Source: Octopus sinensis (Eukaryota). Taken from it: a stretch of DNA of 64,000 nt. The position numbers and the translations under genes are program-made. Where the stretch lies: positions 31,248,001-31,312,000 of the forward strand of contig NC_043017.1 in the NCBI RefSeq assembly GCF_006345805.1, given 5' to 3'. Below are positions 4,715 through 57,319 of the stretch, one piece after another (the first letter of the stretch is position 1; each line of letters starts with the position of its first letter). Under the pieces are notes generated by a model. The model searched no databases. It was not told where the DNA came from and saw only the letters and a program-made list of their open reading frames with translations.

Positions 4715-5132
4715 GCGGCGAGCTAGCAGAAACGTTAGCACGCCGGGCGAAATGCTTAGCGGTATTTCGTCTGCGTTACGTTGTGAGTTCAAATTCCGCC
4801 GAGGTCGACTTTGCCTTTCATCCTTTCGGGGTCGATAAATTAAGTACCAGTTACGCACTGGGGTCGATGTAATCGACTTAATACCTATGTCTGTCCTTGT
4901 TTGTCCCCTCTGTGTTTAGCCCCTTGTGGGTAATAAATAAATAAATAGGTATTTCGTCTGCGTTACGTTGTGAGTTCAAATTCCGCCGAGGTCGACTTTG
5001 CCTTTCGTCCATTCAGGGTCGATAAATTAAGTACCAGTTACGAACTGGGGTCGATGTAATCGACTTAATACCTATGTCTATCCTTGTTTGTTCCCTCTGT
5101 GTTTAGCCCCTTGTGGGTAGTAAAGAAATAGG
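4715..5132 (+). mobile_element. SINE-A, head + 2 body units
   Basis: Head, B-box-like GAGTTCAAATTCC and tail. The second unit restarts at GTATTTCGTCTG (~4949). Confidence 0.9.
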
Positions 5133-10148: not shown

Positions 10149-10907
10149 AAAGCTTCCTTCAAGGCAAAGCTAGAAATGCAATTGTCAGGTCTCCAATTAG
10201 AAGCTTTTAATTTTAAGCGTGGTTGTTATTTAACAATTTGATAAAAGCTATTATCGAAATTTTTCGGTTGACAGTCCTTTGAAAATGACATCATCTAATG
10301 TATTCTATCATTTTAAAGATACGCCTGTGTGGTTCGAGGGTACTCTGGCTGCTCTTTCTTGCAAGTTAAATGCCCATGGATAATTTCCTTTCTTATTTTT
10401 TTATAAATATTGGAGATGGAGCGTCTAAGCCTGTTGCATCCATATCATCTCTTATATCTTGAAAAAAGATTCAAGTCAATATATCAATTAATCATTGTAT
10501 ACACTAGAAAAAGAAAAGGGTTAATCTTCAAAATATAACGAATTGCAACATGCCGAGAAATTAAGACTTTTTGAGATAATTTTAAATTAATTAATTTCAT
10601 AATTATGAGAACGCCGGACAAAAAGACGTACAGTATTTGTTCCGGCTCTTTTTCCCAACAGTTCAATTGCACACTAGGCATAACAACAACGTGAACTTCC
10701 AACCTGTTGTCTCTTGAGGTCTCTGGGTGAGACTTGGAGCCAACTTGTACAAATATAAAGCAAAAGTCAAACATATAAGTCATTTATGCTTTTCACACTT
10801 TCGTTGTTGATAACATTAAGCACAGAGACGTGTTAATCAATAAGCCGCCGCCTTATAGAATCGTCTCATTGTATTTAAACAATAAGCCCGGTTTCAGCAT
10901 GTTTGAA

Positions 10908-11293
10908 GGCGGCGAGCTGGCAGAAACGCTCGCGCGCCGGGCGTAATGCGTAGCCGTATTTCGTCTGTCGTTACGTTCCGAGTTCAAATTCCGCCGAGGT
11001 CGACTTTGCCTTTCATCCTTTCGGGGTCGATAAATTAAGTACCAGTTACGCACTGTGGTCGATGTAATCGACTTAATCCGTTTGTCTGTCCTCTCTGTGT
11101 TTAGCCCCTTGTGTGTAGTAAAGAAATAGGTATTTCGTCTGTCGTTACGTTCTGAGTTCAAATTCCGCCGAGGTCGACTTTGCCTTTCATCCTTTCGGGG
11201 TCGATAAATTAAGTACCAGTTACGCACTTAATCCGTTTGTCTGTCTTTGTTTGTCCTCTCTGGGTTTAGCCCCTTGTGGGTAGTAAAGAAATA
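10908..11293 (+). mobile_element. SINE-A, head + 2 body units, with TSD
   Basis: TSD GGTTTCAGCATGTTTGA at 10890-10906 and 11294-11310. The second unit restarts at ~11130 GTATTTCGTCTGTCG. Confidence 0.92.
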
Positions 11294-11765: not shown

Positions 11766-11801
11766 ATTGCTAATACATTACAAATGTTACTTTAGTGTAG
11801 G

Positions 11802-11864
11802 GGCAGCGAGCTGGCAGAAATGTTAGCACGCCGGGTGAAATGCGTAGCCGTATTTCGTCTGCCG
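11802..11864 (+). mobile_element. SINE-A 5' head (A-box side), host of the LINE insertion
   Basis: GGCAGCGAGCTGGCAGAAATGTTAGCACGCCGGGTGAAATGCGTAGCCGTATTTCGTCTGCCG matches the heads of the intact copies at 4715 and 10908. Confidence 0.9.
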
Positions 11865-12028
11865 CACATGTGTTCGTGAAGTAAGAATTGCTGTTTCGTG
11901 GTGTTAATATTGTTAACAACTGTTGTTTCTTGTTAAACTGTTGAATAACTTAACTGTTGGAGTTTTCAATTGAAAACACTTAGTGCTTGTGGTAGCACGC
12001 GTTGTTCATTCCCCCTTTGGGGGGAAGA

Positions 12029-13558
12029 ATGTCGTCTAGCATGGAGCCTACCGTTGGAGCAGAAATACTTGTTTCTCCTGTTGAGAGGAGGAAATACATG
12101 TCCGGCGAGGAGCCAACTACAGACAAGGAAATAGGGGTTTCCCCCGCTACAAGAAGGAATAGCAGAGAGGATAATATATTTGATATTTTTGGAGATGTGT
12201 CTGAGAGCTCGTCAGAACTTTCACCAGAAGAGTTTCCGACTTTGCCAGAGAACAAAGGCATTGTGTCGAAGAGAATAATTGATGTGCCTAGCATCCAGAT
12301 AGAACCAAAAAATGGAAAAAAAAGTTTTGCGTTGGCTGCTGGGGGTGGAACCCAGATACTGTCGACGAATAAAAGCGAAATTATGAAATACAGCAAAATG
12401 ATGGAAATAAATGACAACAGTGTGAAAATTGAACCTCCGCAAAAGTTATTACAGGAAGAAAAGCAAAAAACAATAATTTTCAAAACATATTGTCTACAAA
12501 ATAGAAAAATTGAAAGAATGTCAGAAGAGAAAATAGAAAAGTGCTTAAAGCCAATATTGGGCGACGTAGTATTTCTGAGAAGAGGAAAAAAATTCGGAAC
12601 GGTGGAAGTAAGGTTCACCAATAAAGAAATAGCACACAAGAACTCAGTGGAAACGTTGAAAACGAACGACGTGGAGTTAATACCCTATTATATGGGGATG
12701 AGGACGTCGCGAATAAAAATTACAAGGGTCCCGCCAGAGGTCGAACCTATGTGGTTGTTGGCGGCAGTCCTAATCAAAGAGGTAGAAAAAATTACTCTCC
12801 TCCAGGCTACCGCTACGGAAAACCCACGCTGGGATGGTAAAACAATTAATCTTCTCATTCAAGCGGACCCTAAAATAATTCAAACAATTCCTGAGACAAT
12901 TGAGGTAGGGGAGGAGAACCTCGTGGTGTTTGTTGAGGGCCGAAAACCTCGATGTTTTTTATGTGGTCAATTAGGCCACATTCGAAGGAACTGCAAGGAA
13001 AATGAAGAAGAGGAGGAAGAGGAGAAAAAAGACAAAGAGGAAGAAGATAAAGAAGAAACAGATGAGAAAAAAACAACAAACAAAAGAAAAATACAACCAG
13101 CAACCCAGCCGAGAGCGGCGACTACTACAGAACAACGACCAAAAAAGACTGCCAGAAGAGAAAAAGAAGAAAAAGGCATAATAGCCGTATACACTAAAGA
13201 TACTGAGCTCATGAGAGACATTCAACTCATAAAGACTGTAAAAAAAATTGATAACCTTTCAGAGGAATTTATCAATTACGACATATATGAAGTCTCAAAT
13301 AAGACTTATAGAATTCTACAAAATAAGTACAGAAAGACTGTATCTTCATTGAGATTAGATTTTAACAAGTCGATATTTCATGGATTACCAGCTCCGATCC
13401 CGCGAGAAAAGGAAAAGGTGGAGATTCCCCCTCCACCTGATAATTCTGTGTCGGTGGTGAGACGGGATTTTGACAAATCTATTTCCCAAGACCGTCCACC
13501 TCCGACCCTGGATAAAAAAAAGGTGGAGGGTCCCCCTCCACCGGACAATCCTAATTAA
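12029..13558 (+). CDS. LINE ORF1 nucleic-acid-binding protein with CCHC zinc knuckle
   Basis: First in-frame ATG is at 12029 (the ORF track opens at TTG 12002). Contains CFLCGQLGHIRRNC (CX2CX4HX4C), an acidic E/K tract and a duplicated Pro-rich C-terminal motif. Confidence 0.9.
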   Translation: MSSSMEPTVGAEILVSPVERRKYMSGEEPTTDKEIGVSPATRRNSREDNIFDIFGDVSESSSELSPEEFPTLPENKGIVSKRIIDVPSIQIEPKNGKKSFALAAGGGTQILSTNKSEIMKYSKMMEINDNSVKIEPPQKLLQEEKQKTIIFKTYCLQNRKIERMSEEKIEKCLKPILGDVVFLRRGKKFGTVEVRFTNKEIAHKNSVETLKTNDVELIPYYMGMRTSRIKITRVPPEVEPMWLLAAVLIKEVEKITLLQATATENPRWDGKTINLLIQADPKIIQTIPETIEVGEENLVVFVEGRKPRCFLCGQLGHIRRNCKENEEEEEEEKKDKEEEDKEETDEKKTTNKRKIQPATQPRAATTTEQRPKKTARREKEEKGIIAVYTKDTELMRDIQLIKTVKKIDNLSEEFINYDIYEVSNKTYRILQNKYRKTVSSLRLDFNKSIFHGLPAPIPREKEKVEIPPPPDNSVSVVRRDFDKSISQDRPPPTLDKKKVEGPPPPDNPN

Positions 13559-13569
13559 ACAGGTAAGTG

Positions 13570-16500
13570 ATGGCTATTCACATTGGTTGTTTAAATGTTC
13601 ATGGCCTGTTGTCAAGCTGGAAGCAAGGACGCTTTCTGAATGACATCAGGTCGAGAAATTTGGATGTAATTGTTGCAACGGAAACCCGGGTGAAGGGGCC
13701 AAGAGATCTGCTCCCCCTCCTGAACGGCTACGAGAAATACGTTTCTCCGAGTCGGGCGGGAGGTGGGGGTGGGGTGTTGGTCCTACTAAAAAGAAACCGG
13801 GTAGCCGAGAAAAAGTTGGTTTTTTCTGACCCAGAAGGCAGGCTGGTCGTTCTCGACTTGACATTCAGTTGTGGCAAGACAATCAGGCTGGTCGCTATTT
13901 ATGCACCAAACATTATTGGCCCGCAAACTGAATATTTTCGTGGCCTAGGAAAGTTCCTAGCCACGTCGCATTCACTAGTAGTGTTAGGAGACTCTAATAC
14001 AATATGTGCAGCACACACAGATTGTGTTGGCTCAAACTCGAACATGAACAGAAAATGTAACACAGGCTTTCGGGATCTGCTAAGTCAATTTCAGCTAGCA
14101 GATCCATATAGGTTGGAGCACCCGAACACTCCACAGTGGACGTGGTCAAATAGTGACGGGTCTACCAGAACATATCTAGATAGGATTTTAATTAGAGAAA
14201 AAGATAAGTCCATAGTTGAGTGTCCACAGTTTTTTCTAGTCAGCTACAGTGACCACAAGATGGTTACCTGTAAACTGACGGTAGATAAGTTGCATAGACA
14301 GGGATCTGGCTACTGGAAACTCAATACGTCCCTTTTGGCGATTGAGGAGTACAGAAAGCGGATCAAGATGTTAATACAGAGGGCATTAACAGGTACCATC
14401 ATTAATAACAAATGGTGGTACGCCCTAAAAAGAGCCATCAAATATGAGTCTATTAGGTTTAGCATAAGTTTAGCTAAGAAGGGACGTAAAATAGGAGATG
14501 GTCTAGTTAAGGAACTAGAAGAAGCCTGGAGGACTGGTAATACAGACCAAGCGAGGGTGAAAAGACTGGAGTTAAACCAGCATCTTGAAGCCCACCACAT
14601 GGGAAGTATTACCAGAGCTAAGTTACGTGCAATGGGAAGTGAAGGAATCAAAGCCGCTGGATGGGCCCGAGTGGTGGAAGCTCGGCAAGGAAATAGTTCC
14701 TCTATTCGGTCTTTGACGAATCAAAATGGTGTCTTGATAAACGAACCCGAGAAAATGTGTGAGGTCTTTCGGGAGTACTTCGCCCAGCTGTTCGGGGGTG
14801 ACGGCGGTCCTGGTGGTGGGAGAGCCCTCGAGGACTTTCTTACCGGGCTGCCGTGCCTCTCGGGGTCGGATGCGGAGTCTTGCGAAGGGCCAATCACACT
14901 GGAGGAGGTGATGGAGGCTTTGGCCGATTGTAAAGCGGGTAAGTCGCCGGGACTTGATGGTCTTCCGTACGAGCTGTATAAATGTATGCCAGACTTGTTC
15001 GGGCAACTACTGACTGACGTGTACGCGAACTGGAAACAGAATGGGTTTATCCCCAGATCTGTGCGCCGGGGAGTAGTGACGTTGGTCAGAAAGGACCCGG
15101 ACAAGGGGGACGTTCTAGAGAATTTCAGGCCCATCACTCTGTTAAACGCAGAAGTGAAGATTTTGGCCAAGGTTCTAGCAAAAAGGTTGGCGCGTGTCGC
15201 GAATGGTATAGTCGGGGAGGCACAGACATGTGCCATCCCAGGCAGAACCATTCAGGATACCCTCCATCTTATTCGCTATACCATAGAGAGGTTTGGTAAT
15301 AAATCTGGCAAAGGTGGGGCATTGGTGCATTTGGACCAGTCTAAAGCTTTTGATAGGGTTGACCATCGATACCTAGCGACTGTACTTGCGCGGTTTGGCC
15401 TGGGCCTTGGCTTCCTCAGGTGGTTTATCGCTTTGTACCACAACATTGACTCGATAGTTCGGGTGAACGGTTTCCTTTCGAAGCCGTTCTGCATCAGACG
15501 CTCGGTTCGTCAAGGATGTCCGCTTTCACCACTTTTGTATGTGATGGCTCTCGAGCCATTACTGCAAAGGTTGAGTGGCATCCCGAGAGAACCAGGACTA
15601 GAGGAGTTTGTTACGGCTTTCGCGGATGATATCACTATCAGTGTAACCACAGTGGTACGCCTACGTGAAGTAGGTAAGACTATTGAGGCTTACGAGGAGG
15701 TAGCAGGAGCAAAGATTAACCGGGAAAAGTCGGTCGGCTTGCAGCTCGGCACCTGGGTTGGCAAGTCGATGCCTTCAGACAGTGTTGTTAGGCGCTGGAC
15801 GGAGGGACCGGTTAAGTTGCTGGGAGTCTGGTTTGGACCAGGCCTCCAGATAGAGAAGAACTGGACGGAGGTATTGAGCAGGGTGGCTGCAGTAGTCAAG
15901 ACTTGGTCTTGGCGGTGGCTATCCCTGAAAGGGAGGGCGGAAGTGGCCAATGTGTTTATCGCATCGGTCATTACCTACCGCCTGACTGTCGTGCCCTGTC
16001 CGGATTCGTGGTTGATCAGGTTGGAGAGACAGCTCTTTCGCTTTTTGTGGAAGGGCAGGTCGCCACTTGTGAAACGCTCTGTCTGCTGTCAAAAGCCTTT
16101 AAATGGAGGTTTAGGGATGCCTTGGTTAATGATGCGCAGACATGCGTTGAGGTTGAGGCACCTCTGGATTCTCCTGGATAGTGAACGGGTGTGGTCTCCG
16201 CTGGCCAGACAAATGTTCCCTGAGTTCAAGAGTTTTTGCGAACAGGAAGCCTGGTGTTCTCGTAGACCGAGGTCGAGTGAGTGGCATAAAGAGTGCCGTA
16301 AGGCCCTCTTGCTGTTCCGGCGCTCGGGCAACGCCAGCGGTGGGGGTTCCACACGGATTTTATATAGTGGGTTGGTAGAGTCTGAATGCGACGATGGCCT
16401 GGGGTCGACTCTAGGTCTCGGATTTATTCAACTGGACAGCTTGTTTCATCGTACATTCGGGTTGAGAACGTTGGACAACTTCCAAAAGTCCTTAACCTGG

Positions 16501-16971
16501 CAATGCTACAGAGGTGCCTTGCCCGTTTGGGATAAGCTCGCAAGACATGGTAAACGTCAGTCGCCGACCTGTCCAAGATGCGGTGGGGACAGGGAAACCG
16601 TCCCTCACGCTATTGTTCAGTGTCCGGAGATAACTGAAATGTGGGCTTATGCTGAACATCTGTTGTCCGGCGAAGGAAGAGTACGGCTGTCGACTGAGTC
16701 AATTATAAAAATTGACCCACCGGGAGTTCTAACGAACGAAGGTAAGAATTGTTTTCTCACGGTTGTAGCAATAGCAAAAGAGGCTGTATGGAATACTAGG
16801 ATAAAAGGAATTAAGACAGGCAACTTTATCTCTGGTGACAATTTACGATCCTTTTTTTCTTTTCATTTGAAAAGGAAACTGTGGCTGGAGAAGAGGTGTC
16901 TGTCAGAGTGTACGTTCCAAAAGAGATGGAAGTATGTTGCACGAGTGTTGTGCGTGCAAGGAACCGTGTGA
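13570..16971 (+). CDS. LINE ORF2: AP endonuclease + reverse transcriptase + C-terminal zinc finger
   Basis: APE motifs LNVHGL, ATET, AIYAP, GDSN, YLDRI, SDH. The YWKLN motif is typical of L1/Tx1. RT motifs KSPGLDG, FRPITLLN, LDQSKAFDRV, RQGCPLSP, FADD. C-terminal CPRC...H...C. No stops or frameshifts over ~1133 aa. Confidence 0.97.
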   Translation: MAIHIGCLNVHGLLSSWKQGRFLNDIRSRNLDVIVATETRVKGPRDLLPLLNGYEKYVSPSRAGGGGGVLVLLKRNRVAEKKLVFSDPEGRLVVLDLTFSCGKTIRLVAIYAPNIIGPQTEYFRGLGKFLATSHSLVVLGDSNTICAAHTDCVGSNSNMNRKCNTGFRDLLSQFQLADPYRLEHPNTPQWTWSNSDGSTRTYLDRILIREKDKSIVECPQFFLVSYSDHKMVTCKLTVDKLHRQGSGYWKLNTSLLAIEEYRKRIKMLIQRALTGTIINNKWWYALKRAIKYESIRFSISLAKKGRKIGDGLVKELEEAWRTGNTDQARVKRLELNQHLEAHHMGSITRAKLRAMGSEGIKAAGWARVVEARQGNSSSIRSLTNQNGVLINEPEKMCEVFREYFAQLFGGDGGPGGGRALEDFLTGLPCLSGSDAESCEGPITLEEVMEALADCKAGKSPGLDGLPYELYKCMPDLFGQLLTDVYANWKQNGFIPRSVRRGVVTLVRKDPDKGDVLENFRPITLLNAEVKILAKVLAKRLARVANGIVGEAQTCAIPGRTIQDTLHLIRYTIERFGNKSGKGGALVHLDQSKAFDRVDHRYLATVLARFGLGLGFLRWFIALYHNIDSIVRVNGFLSKPFCIRRSVRQGCPLSPLLYVMALEPLLQRLSGIPREPGLEEFVTAFADDITISVTTVVRLREVGKTIEAYEEVAGAKINREKSVGLQLGTWVGKSMPSDSVVRRWTEGPVKLLGVWFGPGLQIEKNWTEVLSRVAAVVKTWSWRWLSLKGRAEVANVFIASVITYRLTVVPCPDSWLIRLERQLFRFLWKGRSPLVKRSVCCQKPLNGGLGMPWLMMRRHALRLRHLWILLDSERVWSPLARQMFPEFKSFCEQEAWCSRRPRSSEWHKECRKALLLFRRSGNASGGGSTRILYSGLVESECDDGLGSTLGLGFIQLDSLFHRTFGLRTLDNFQKSLTWQCYRGALPVWDKLARHGKRQSPTCPRCGGDRETVPHAIVQCPEITEMWAYAEHLLSGEGRVRLSTESIIKIDPPGVLTNEGKNCFLTVVAIAKEAVWNTRIKGIKTGNFISGDNLRSFFSFHLKRKLWLEKRCLSECTFQKRWKYVARVLCVQGTV

Positions 16972-17219
16972 ATAGACGAGAAAAAAAAAAAAAAAGGAAA
17001 AATAAAAAGGTATCAGCGGTAGATCGGGGCTTGTGGGATCGGAGCGTAACTTGATCATCGCTTCATTTGTATTGTTTTTGTACTGTGTATTCCATTCGAT
17101 TTTTATGTATTGTATTTTATTTTTGATGTCACATTTATGTAAAATCATATCGATTCACTGATCCCATCAGTTGTACTGTCCATATCTATGTTTGGCCCCC
17201 GGTGGGCAATAAAGAAATT

Positions 17220-17970
17220 CGTATTTCGTCTGCCGTTACGTTCTGAGTTCAAATTCTGCCGAGGTTGACTTTGCCTTTCATCCTTTCGGGGTCGATAAGT
17301 TAAGTACTAGTTACGCACTGGGGTCGAGGTAATCGACTTAATCCGTTTGTCTGTCCTTGTTTGTCCTCTCTGTGTTTAGCCCCTTGTGGGTAGTAAAGAA
17401 ATAGGTATTTCGACTACCGCTACGTTCTGAGTTCACATTCCGCCGAGGTCGACTTTGTCTTTCATCCTTTCGGGGTCGATAAATTAAGTACCAGTTACGC
17501 ACTGGGGTCGATGTAATCTACTTAATCCGTTTGTCTGTCCTTGTTTGTCCTCTCTGTGTTTAGCCGCTTGTGGGTAGTAAAGAAATGGGTATTTCGTCCG
17601 CCGTTACGTTCTGAGTTCAAATTCCGCAGAGGTCGACTTTGCCTTTCATCCTTTCGGGGTCGATAAATTAAGTACCAGTTACGCACTGGAGTTAATGTAA
17701 TCGACTTAATCCGTTTGTCTGTCCTTGTTTGTCCTCTCTGTGTTTAGCCGCTTGTGGGTAGTAAAGAAATGGGTATTTCGTCCGCCGTTACGTTCTGAGT
17801 TCAAATTCCGCAGAGGTCGACTTTGCCTTCATCCTTTCGGGGTCGATAAATTAAGTACCAGTTACGCACTGGAGTCAATGTAATCGACTTAATCCGTTTG
17901 TCTGTCCTTGTTTGTCCTCTCTGTGTTTAGCCCCTTCTGGGTAGTAAAGAAATAGGTATTTTGTCTGCCG
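17220..17970 (+). repeat. Tandem array of four headless SINE-A units (~184-bp period) plus a terminal 15-bp target copy
   Basis: Units start with GTATTTCG at 17221, 17405, 17589 and 17773 and each ends ...TAAAGAAATRG. A final GTATTTTGTCTGCCG at 17956-17970 is followed by unrelated sequence. Confidence 0.93.
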
Positions 17971-32992: not shown

Positions 32993-33696
32993 CCCTAAAC
33001 TATGACTTAAATTTGAATGATAACACCTTGTTATTTTATGCTCTATCCTAGTGAAGAAGCCATATGCCACATTTCCGTAACTGGCTTCATCATTCAACAG
33101 AAACGACGTTAATTAAAAGGCTTGTATGTTTGCCAATAAGTACATCACAAATATTTGACAATGCACAATCGATCAAATACTTTCGTTTTGAATTTGGAAA
33201 GAAATAACAGATCCTATTTTGTTTTTGTATTGAAGTGAATAAGTTCAAGTGATTCAAGCCAAAGTGATACTGCGATGCGTAAAGATAAGCTCCGATCTTT
33301 TATTCAAAGTCATTTATCAACTTGTGTTTTGCGTATTTAATTCACTGTTTTAGCAAATGTTGACAACAGATTGATAAGGTTATCATTTCTGTCTCTTTAT
33401 TGTAAAATAATTTTGTTGTAACAATTTGGGATTATTTATTTATCTTTTTTTATATATATAAGCGGAATTTATCTAGCGAGAGAAGTTGCTTTAAATTCTT
33501 TAAGGCTTAATCAGCGGAGGAAACGTATTTTAGGCCCTCTGAAACTAGTGGGATAACCCTTTCTACAATAGGCACAAGCCCTGAAGCTTTAGGGGAAAGT
33601 CTAGTTGATAACATTAACCCAATTATTTGATAGGTATTTTTACTGAATCCGAATGAATAAAATTTGAACTCACAATCTAAAGACAGAGAAAATATC

Positions 33697-33928
33697 TATT
33701 TCTTTATTACCCACAAGGGGCTAAACACAGAGAGGACAAACAAGGACAGACATAGGTATTAAGTCGATTACATCGACCCCAGTGCGTAACTGGTATTTAA
33801 TTTATCGACCCCGAAAGGATGAAAGGCAAAGTCGACCTCGGCGGAATTTGAACTCACAACGTAACACAGACGAAATAGCGCTAAGCATTTCGCCCGGCGT
33901 GCTAACGTTTCTGCCAGCTCGCCGCCTT
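33697..33928 (-). mobile_element. Full-length young SINE-A nested in an old SINE-A-related copy at the conserved target site
   Basis: TSD ACAGAG(A/G)AAATATC at 33683-33696 and 33929-33942. The old head is at 33943-33990 and the old body at ~33560-33682. Confidence 0.9.
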
Positions 33929-34441
33929 ACAGAGGAAATATCGCGAAGCATTTGGTCCGGCGTGCTAACCATTCTGCAAGTTGGCTACCTTTGATAAGTG
34001 GAATATTGATTTCAAATTTTAGCAGAAGGTCAGCAATTTCGGTGATGGGGAGGAGCTAAGTGGCTTAAATCGACCCCACAGCTCGATGACGATTTTATTA
34101 ATCTGTTGTCTGAATTTCCTAAAACATAAGTTCATAAAGGACTTTGAATAAAACATCGGAGCTTATCTTAACGCATGGCAGTACCATCTTATCGACCCTG
34201 AAAGGGATGAAAGGTAAAACCGATATCAGCGTAATTTGAACTCAGACGAAATGCTGCTAAGCATTTTATCGGGCGTGCTAACGATTCGGCCAGTTCGACG
34301 AGTAGTAGGATAATAGCAAGAAGTTATTCTTTACAGCAAGGCCTGGCGTGAATACTTCTAAACAACAATGACCTTCTATAGATAGACAGGAGCCAAGCGA
34401 CAATGTTAAGATGTAGTTACATTTAACCCCCCAAAAGGAAA

Positions 34442-34865
34442 TACTCTTTTACTCTTTTACTTGTTTCAGTCATTTAACTGCGGCCATGCTGGAGCACCGC
34501 CTTTAGTCGAGTAACTCGACCCCAGGACTTATTCTTTGTAAGCCCAGTACTTATTCTATTGGTCTCTTTTGCGGGACCGCTAGGTGACGGGGACGTAAAC
34601 ACAACAGCATCGGTTGTCAAGCAATGCTAGGGGGACAAACACAGACACACAAACAAACACACACACACACGCACACACACATATACATATTTATACATAT
34701 ATACGATGGGATTCTTTCAGTTTCCATCTACCAAATCCACTCACAAGGCTTTGGTCGGTCTGGGGCTTTAGCAGAAGACACTTGTCCAAGGTGCCACGCA
34801 GTGGGACTGAACCCGGAACCATGTGGTTGGTAAACAAGCTACTTACCACACAGCCACTCCTGCGC
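34442..34865 (-). mobile_element. SINE-B
   Basis: Complete reverse-complement copy. Confidence 0.9.
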
Positions 34866-35026
34866 ATATAATAAATATGACTGAAAATGTGGAAGGGCAG
34901 TTATGCATATCTGTCTGAGTGCACACATGTTGCTGCTATTCAGCTTTTAATCAATCTAAGTGAGAAGAAAGATTATTAAATTCATTCCAATCGTAACCGT
35001 TATCATTTATTTCAGATATATTCTAT

Positions 35027-55008: not shown

Positions 55009-55065
<57 letters not shown>

Positions 55066-55066
<1 letters not shown>

Positions 55067-55318
55067 GTTTCTTATTAGCCACACAGGGCTGCACACAGAC
55101 GGGACAGATTACAAAGTAGAGCTTTTCTTTTGGGGGAGAGAAAAAACGGGGGGGGGGGTCGATCAAAAGGGATCGTAAAAGGGAAAGAAAAGAAGAAAAC
55201 GATCAATAGGGATCGTGTATCAGAGAAACGTCATGATGTAAAGTTTAAAGGAGGAAGCAGATCAGGTTTATCCGTGGAAAGAAAAGCCAACGGAGAAGAC
55301 CGCGGTAACCTCGGTCAA
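55066..55318 (-). mobile_element. 3' UTR fragment of a related LINE family sharing the Tx1/SINE-A type tail
   Basis: The minus strand ends TGTCCCGTCTGTGTGCAGCCCTGTGTGGCTAATAAGAAAC, alignable by eye with the LINE 3' end at 17171-17219. It sits in (TA)n. Confidence 0.6.
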
Positions 55319-55333
55319 TAATGTATATATATG

Positions 55334-56173: not shown

Positions 56174-56590
56174 TATTTCTTTACAACCCACATGGGGCTA
56201 AATACAGAGGGGACAAACAAGGACAGACAAACGGATTAAGTCGATTACATCGACCCCAGTGCGTAACTGGTACTTAATTTATCGACCCCGAAACGATGAA
56301 AGGCAAAGTTGACCTGGGCGGAACTTGAACTCGGGACGTAACGACGGACGAAATACGTATTTCTTTACTACCCACTAGGGGCTAAACACAGAGAGGACAA
56401 ACAAGGACAGACAAACGGATTAAGCCGATTACATCGACTCCAGTGCGTAACTGGTACTTAATTTATCGACCCCGAAAGGATGAAAGGTAAAGTTGACCTC
56501 GGCGGAATTTGAACTCGGAACGTCACGACAGACGAAATACGGCTATGCATTTCGCCCGGCGTGCTAACGTTTCTGCCAGCTCGCCGCCTT
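56174..56590 (-). mobile_element. SINE-A, head + 2 body units, with TSD
   Basis: TSD AGATG(C/A)TCCTATATA at 56159-56173 and 56591-56605. Unit junction at ~56357. Confidence 0.9.
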
Positions 56591-57319
56591 AGATGATCCT
56601 ATATAAACTGATAAACTTGATAGCGGTAATGTACCGTTTACGTTTTTTAAGTAATTATAGGTTTTCCTGATTAGTAGTGAGCGACCAGGAAAGGGTAAAT
56701 TCCATGATTCTGTGTTTCCCGTACTTGACAATTCAATTGGAATTGTTGAGTGAAAGATGAAGCCGTCAGATAGCAGAACCAAAAGAACGAAGCACTTATT
56801 TGGCTGCGTATGTAAAGATAAATTGAAAAATATTCATTGAAATAAATACATGCAGATGCAATGAGCTGATTAAAGAACGAACGAATAAAAATTTAACAAA
56901 TAACGTTTATAATTCGATCATATTAGATGCAGATATTTCCGTCTATTTACAAAGCACCATTCACGCTTACCACATTAGAAAAAAAATGCAGAGAAGGAAA
57001 AAGTATTAAAGAAAAAAAGTTTAGAATGTTGAAAAACGAGTTGCAAAATAGTGGGGAAAAAATAGCTATAACTTCCAAACGTTGGTCAGAAATCGCTCTG
57101 TATTCATAAAATCATAAATCACCGACATAAATAGTCTGGTCAGATATTGTTCTGCATTCGGAAAGTCATACATCATGTACATAAACAGTGAGGAAATTAG
57201 CAATGTCATTTCCAATGGTGGAACATTTTGGAAACTTTACTTATAGAATATTTCGGCTGATGCAAATAATTACATGAAAATCAGTCCTTGAATTGAAAGT
57301 GCTTCCATTAGATTATGAT

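Follow-up and report, generated by a model that had tools for sequence, protein, structure and literature searches.

The stretch analysed here, referred to as the window, comprises 64,000 nucleotides of the Octopus sinensis genome (NCBI RefSeq assembly GCF_006345805.1, contig NC_043017.1, positions 31,248,001 to 31,312,000). It contains a young short interspersed element (SINE) of a family termed SINE-A which lies nested within an older relative, and an intact long interspersed element (LINE) which interrupts another SINE copy. The arrangement of both elements, together with genome-wide counts, points to a site-specific LINE that targets the head of the SINE family which it likely mobilises, a reading which we regard as probable from the sequence patterns described below. 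SINE positions are numbered along a 232-base consensus built within the analysis. The nested locus (33553-33990, minus strand) consists of the following parts, where TSD denotes a target-site duplication:

33943..33990, minus strand: 5' portion of the older host (family B SINE, positions 1-48) with an A-box-like motif, by alignment to the B consensus with a shuffle control
33929..33942, minus strand: first TSD copy, GATATTTCCTCTGT, 14 bp, host positions 49-62
33928, minus strand: single extra A between the first TSD copy and the insert
33697..33927, minus strand: young full-length SINE-A comprising a head of its own, a core and the 3' tail shared with the LINE, by alignment to the A consensus
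33683..33696, minus strand: second TSD copy, GATATTTTCTCTGT, 14 bp
33553..33682 (end at about 33553), minus strand: remainder of the old host with a B-box-like motif, a 22-base deletion, core and B-type tail

This order of old head, duplication, complete young SINE-A, duplication and old body had been proposed in a first-pass annotation made from the sequence alone, and was recovered by minus-strand alignment. The alignments to consensus sequences which that annotation had suggested show that the insert matches SINE-A at 221/231 bases; it is also 97.4% identical to the SINE-A copy at 4715-4943 of the window. The 5' half of the host (positions 1-61, including the first TSD copy) matches the consensus of a sister family, B, at 49/61 bases and the 3' half (positions 52-218, with the 22-base deletion located behind the B box) at 108/141 bases, the respective scores being 76 and 120.5 as opposed to shuffle maxima of 26 and 38.5 (500 shuffles each). 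Family B has the head and core of SINE-A and a different tail. The host is therefore a diverged relative, as had been assumed, but a member of a sister family and not an old SINE-A. The duplication has the predicted length of 14 bp with 13 identical bases, and A50, T51 and C57 are present in both copies, in contrast to G, C and A in the B consensus, from which it follows that both copies derive from the diverged host and not from the insert. Together with the different tails and the two heads, the host-derived duplication rules out tandem duplication, which the annotation had likewise dismissed. Thus, a young SINE-A has inserted into an older sister SINE at host positions 49-62. The sequences at 33991-34004 and 33541-33554 possibly represent a decayed TSD around the whole old host, which is located behind the tail of another old SINE at 34060-34005.

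The LINE of the window and its surroundings are composed as follows:

11801..11864, plus strand: head of a SINE (positions 1-64) preceding the LINE, of which 11849-11864 is the 5' target copy
11865..17219, plus strand: intact L1/Tx1-like LINE, with Pfam domains
12029-13558, plus strand: open reading frame 1 (ORF1) with a zinc knuckle
13570-16971, plus strand: ORF2 with APE endonuclease, reverse transcriptase and zf-RVT domains (Pfam)
17220..17970, plus strand: 3' target copy, followed by four SINE-A units lacking heads (period 184) and by a final 16-base target piece

SINE positions 49-64 flank this LINE on either side, and the TSDs of both elements begin at position 49, in line with the earlier statement that the nested SINE-A occupies the target position of the LINE. 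In addition, the two elements have similar 3' ends, 33 of the last 37 bases being shared. The exact 28-base tail of the LINE occurs 139 times in the 2.72-Gb genome over which all genome-wide motif counts were taken, and the site motif follows 1-3 bases behind it in 131 of these occurrences. The site was likewise found at 38 of the first 40 tails listed, and at 30/30 of the best LINE 3' ends as well as 30/30 of the best 5' ends (the window copy included). An older LINE subfamily, 84-89% alike, lies at the site in 28/30 copies (three of which are already among the 40), where the first SINE unit is D-like in 13, C-like in 8 and A-like in 7 cases. The LINE family has a few hundred copies (433 candidates genome-wide). 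It supports targeting of the site much more strongly than does the nested locus, which the first-pass annotation had put forward as the best evidence.

Comparison of 29 full-length LINEs (11/40 loci were dropped as truncated, diverged or without an exact 5' motif) revealed a median difference from the column majority of 0.23% for the LINEs, 3.1% for the heads and 4.9% for the bodies. Base 49 is identical on either side of the LINE in 29/29 copies, while the two copies of positions 50-64 disagree in 16/29, the age of the LINEs predicting about 2; of the changes involved, 14 are confined to the 5' side, another 14 to the 3' side, and 2 affect both. Furthermore, 32/39 copies (L201-L240, where L numbers denote loci of the analysis) start at base 1-3 and are thus 5' complete, which is unusual for LINEs, although the exact-tail pattern behind this set may favour young copies. 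One 5'-truncated LINE (L222) is joined directly to the head at 49. In the window, the array downstream of the LINE terminates with the 16-base target piece at 17955-17970, followed by non-SINE sequence; either no host body is present here, or a further insertion comes next.

The genome-wide count of nested heads by host position, also suggested in the first-pass annotation, showed that they are not uniformly distributed. An exact SINE head within 8 bases (<=8) behind the position-49 site motif was matched 106 times. The corresponding numbers were 3 for the B box, 5 for a core motif and 25 for a position-16 motif. The 106 matches include tandem head runs, the 100 listed corresponding to 75 loci by our count. 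The first 30 listed represent 25 loci, and in 17 of these the body resumes at 49-52: older B/C/D-like sequence surrounds the insert in 8, as at the nested locus, and in 7 the insert lies behind an earlier SINE-A tail, that is, at a regenerated target. A 1-Mb sample, made up of 10-kb stretches (n=100) taken from fixed positions on 20 contigs, contained 96 A-type tails, of which 30 continue into a SINE at 49-52, 7 do so at position 16 and 2 run into the opposite strand at 137. None of 1500 random stretches used as a control continues at 49-52. The site itself occurs about 149 times per Mb. Position 16 (AGAA) constitutes a second hotspot for CA-tailed SINE-A (e.g., L062, L028, L042, L055 and L080).

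SINE-A itself is only partly bound to the position-49 site. Most of its copies occupy other places, with short GGTA, AGAA or TATA motifs, and by crude classes GT-type tails prefer GGTA-like sites, CA-type tails AGAA-like sites including position 16. Composites with a single SINE-A head on C, D or B bodies joined at 49 were found at about 7 loci among those listed for the 1-Mb sample, which holds one two-head locus (L049); the heads of the composites are host-like in L016 and L032 and insert-like in L056. As read-through RNA could produce such one-head composites, they are not taken as proof. Pure arrays were rejected as independent targeting events: adjacent units share rare variants in 14/22 pairs, as opposed to 3.5% of 3471 random pairs, and the arrays are therefore largely local duplications, in agreement with the distrust of them expressed in the first-pass annotation. 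Separately, the window contains SINE-A dimers with one head and a junction at position 49 (4715-5130, 10906-11293 and 56174-56591), the dimer at 10906 being flanked as a whole by a perfect 16-bp duplicate.

Several observations weigh against a LINE dedicated to the head of its own SINE. Two of the 40 tail loci lie off the site, namely a SINE with a LINE-like tail and a 130-base piece elsewhere, and 8/25 extra-head loci show no resumption of the body at 49-52. In the 1-Mb sample, 49/66 SINE-A chains end outside any SINE (5/71 chains were dropped, four with sister-LINE tails and one at a stretch end), and GT-type tails (n=42; crude classes) end in a SINE in 11 cases, at other GGT-like sites in 17 and elsewhere in 14. 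The last base before the target is A in SINE-A and T in the LINE. No LINE partner was found here for the position-16 hotspot. A sister LINE (L044, L081, L023 and L241-L270), about 67% similar at the DNA level, has the same kind of tail, and yet 0/30 of its copies end in a SINE; the family ends in TATC/TATA repeats, with TATC in 23/30 copies (four being one duplicated locus). Since this sister shares the tail and not the target, the tail does not point to any one partner. Finally, the empty host site was not seen when 33100-34450 was compared with contigs from 4 of 24 listed runs, a comparison swamped by SINE matches: among the joints listed none skips the insert, and among the pieces listed none spans it.

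The most serious competitor, possible but unlikely in our estimation, holds that the hotspot reflects a short GGTATTT-like motif preferred by the endonuclease or by RNA-primer pairing, with the SINE head merely its commonest carrier and no dedicated targeting of SINEs. Such a preference alone would yield a hotspot, given that the SINE site accounts for 79/151 occurrences of the 8-mer [GC]GTATTTC in the 1-Mb sample (and 65/245 of GGTATTT), a share which also speaks against dedicated targeting. Solo SINE-A TSDs often start with GGTA, two antisense insertions at position 137 start with GGTACTTA, and off-site LINE ends start with GATATT (L236) and GGTAT (L296). The LINE speaks against it, as short motifs predict an occupancy of 27-52% and would fall below the 94-95% seen; for SINE-A itself, the motif preference probably holds in part. 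Less likely still, a different partner, unseen or extinct and of similar preference, placed SINE-A. The tail is common to at least two LINE families, the position-16 hotspot is without a partner and the base before the target differs, all of which fit such a partner; on the other hand, the TSDs of SINE and LINE have the same first base (49) and a similar length, and the presence of the older, 84-89% similar LINE copies at the site means that the lineage covers the age of SINE-A, whose copies are 93-94% identical to the consensus.

It appears improbable that the LINE and its SINE flanks hitchhike as a single head-LINE-body transcript, in which case the occupancy would represent few events. Heads with G44/C49 are enriched before LINEs (19/29 vs. 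19/62; Fisher p 0.003), and the agreement of base 49 on both sides together with the predominance of full-length copies would suit a joint transcript. However, divergence is ten to twenty times greater in the flanks than in the LINEs, private changes occur there, and the truncated L222 also lies at the site, so that hitchhiking as one unit is unlikely; moreover, the bodies behind the LINEs stem from the A, C and D families, and the nested locus contains no LINE and is thus beyond its reach. The faintest of the alternatives is tandem duplication, recombination or template jumping among SINE copies with no targeted insertion. Although pure arrays are largely such local duplications and tandem head runs inflate the 106 matches, host and insert at the nested locus differ in tail and age, and the TSD carries host-private bases on both sides. 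The nested locus is well supported as one visible case of a genome-wide loop in which a LINE and its SINE target the SINE itself.

Target-primed reverse transcription is an established insertion mechanism, and SINE-A has both a TSD and a LINE-shared tail, two hallmarks of a tRNA-type SINE moved in this way. The shared tail, the common first TSD base and the overlapping ages make it probable that SINE-A is mobilised by this LINE lineage, whose sequence-specific endonuclease and reverse transcriptase likely placed the young SINE-A in the older sister SINE. The LINE enzymes would recognise SINE-A via the common 3' tail; a bottom-strand nick before position 49 would prime copying from this tail, and a top-strand nick near 62-64 would yield the TSD. 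A short leader from the head of the source SINE may then pair with the head of the new target, as in R2, and we lean slightly towards the view that the cDNA, at its 5' end, mostly pairs with the head of the host in this manner, leaving most insertions at the site with one head. The nested locus would represent the rarer two-head outcome, where joining without homology retained both heads. The leader step is supported by the 16/29 disagreeing copies of 50-64, the 32/39 5'-complete LINEs and the two junction types of R2, whereas later SINE insertions on the 3' side or gene conversion could explain part of the disagreement. More tentatively, and with the balance somewhat against it, the LINE may land between the SINE promoter boxes, take up a host-head leader and use it for joining its 5' end, while through the same machinery SINE-A would overwrite old relatives and supply them with a new body and tail. 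Use of the leader for 5' joining would leave most LINE copies full length, and overwriting from the head would offer a route for the swapping of SINE tails and a seed for the 184-bp arrays.

Classification of the LINE rests on its proteins. Pfam identified ORF1, ORF2 with an APE endonuclease, an L1-like reverse transcriptase and a C-terminal zinc domain, the features of the L1 group, and the best solved relative of ORF2 is human L1 ORF2 (E 2e-64; R2, 2e-20). No named Tx1 element occurs among 49 hits of the window LINE. In a FastTree phylogeny of 48/50 rows, it falls into a 22-row group (support 98) together with the row P0004, which has ZCCHC3-type ORF1 domains, separate from the rows carrying the vertebrate L1 ORF1 domain; this ORF1 type is a putative Tx1 marker. 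An atlas search yielded only generic clusters of endonuclease and reverse transcriptase. Tx1 families have been credited with a target preference where more than 20% of flanks agree (PMC4494074), and the present LINE exceeds this value at 131/139 flanks, its older copies at 28/30. The LINE behaves like a Tx1 element and may belong there; its neighbours in the tree are unnamed. A 3' fragment of the sister LINE is found at 55060..55330 on the minus strand; its tail is of the same kind and it ends in a TA repeat.

The putatively tRNA-derived head of the SINE carries A- and B-box-like motifs at about 11-21 and 74-84, as judged by eye against the box consensus, while ARAGORN reported 0 tRNAs in the window and Rfam no tRNA match in 33000-35000. 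The octopus OR1/OR2 elements (CORE-SINE) and MetaSINEs were considered as candidate families for the SINE. By eye, its central domain bears a faint likeness only to BivaCORE-SINE2, and the bivalve Meta rows show no match to it, both within the supplement of PMC4824008. Three SINE motifs were absent from the literature searched. The same hairpin fold was predicted for the tails of the SINE and the two LINEs, but it is no better than shuffles (z -0.14, -1.41 and 0.45) and was therefore left unused.

According to the portions of PMC4494074 available to us, the closest known system is that of the crocodilian Tx1-Mar LINEs and SINEU, which insert into Mariner-N4_AMi. Both systems feature a LINE and a SINE with a common target inside another interspersed repeat, a SINE that is looser than the LINE (13-90% in crocodilians), two target hotspots and microsatellite-targeting relatives. 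In contrast, the crocodilian LINE and SINE target a DNA transposon as a third element, while the octopus target is the SINE family itself; likewise, SINE and LINE share a 3' tail in the octopus, and none is shown for Tx1-Mar and SINEU in those portions. Xenopus Tx1L, which inserts into Tx1D (cited in PMC4494074), is also a site-specific APE-type LINE with another mobile element as its target, yet that target is of piggyBac type and no passenger of the LINE. Kibi and Koshi are Tx1 families targeting microsatellites (PMC4494074); the octopus sister LINE resembles them in ending in repeats, with a different repeat unit.

For R2, which resides in 28S rDNA, target sequence at the 5' end of the RNA has been proposed to pair and thereby produce uniform junctions, while upstream target sequence is duplicated where pairing fails, and both junction types occur (PMC3774820, as far as available). 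The second head at the nested locus resembles the unpaired type. However, R2 employs a restriction-like endonuclease and a ribozyme, whereas the octopus LINE has an APE domain and its leader is suggested by DNA alone. The SINE arrays of squamates and bivalves consist of head-to-tail partial SINEs grown by unequal exchange (PMC10702118, PMC11481361, in the parts available); recombination is invoked for these, whereas the first junction of the octopus arrays is fixed at the LINE target site. Thirteen recently active L1-Tx1 families have been described in Octopus vulgaris (PMC13282606), in the available text and supplement of which the words "target" and "nested" occur 0 times. No report of the window LINE or of a LINE targeting its own SINE was found in the literature searched, with Repbase, Dfam and SINEBase outside its scope; the same holds for the available parts of PMC4758252, PMC8869645, PMC3747384, PMC4176376, PMC9004415 and PMC4824008 (section 9, supplement). 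The position-49 target may already be recorded in these databases or in subscription papers (Ohshima and Okada 1994; Kojima and Fujiwara 2004).

Known safe havens of site-specific LINEs comprise RNA genes, microsatellites and other transposons. What differs in the octopus is a haven formed by a SINE family that likely borrows the enzymes of the LINE, so that the passenger builds the target. Considering about 149 sites per Mb and only a few hundred LINE copies, the LINEs are too scarce for suppression of the SINE. Such a loop would account for SINE-in-SINE nests, for chimeras of SINE-A on old bodies and for the start of the 184-bp arrays, all of which bear on repeat annotation and SINE-based dating in the octopus genome. 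In addition, the young intact LINE and its same-tailed sister with another target offer a natural test of how the specificity of an APE endonuclease changes.

Two further arrangements concern the SINEs. The antisense SINE-A copies at position 137 (L096 and L099) each lie in another SINE and have perfect 14-bp TSDs. Head-only tandem runs (positions 1-64, period 64-67) reach up to 11 matches and occur at:

C1:195358955-195359244: head-only tandem run
C7:15322784-15323078: head-only tandem run
C3430:1379-2208: head-only tandem run
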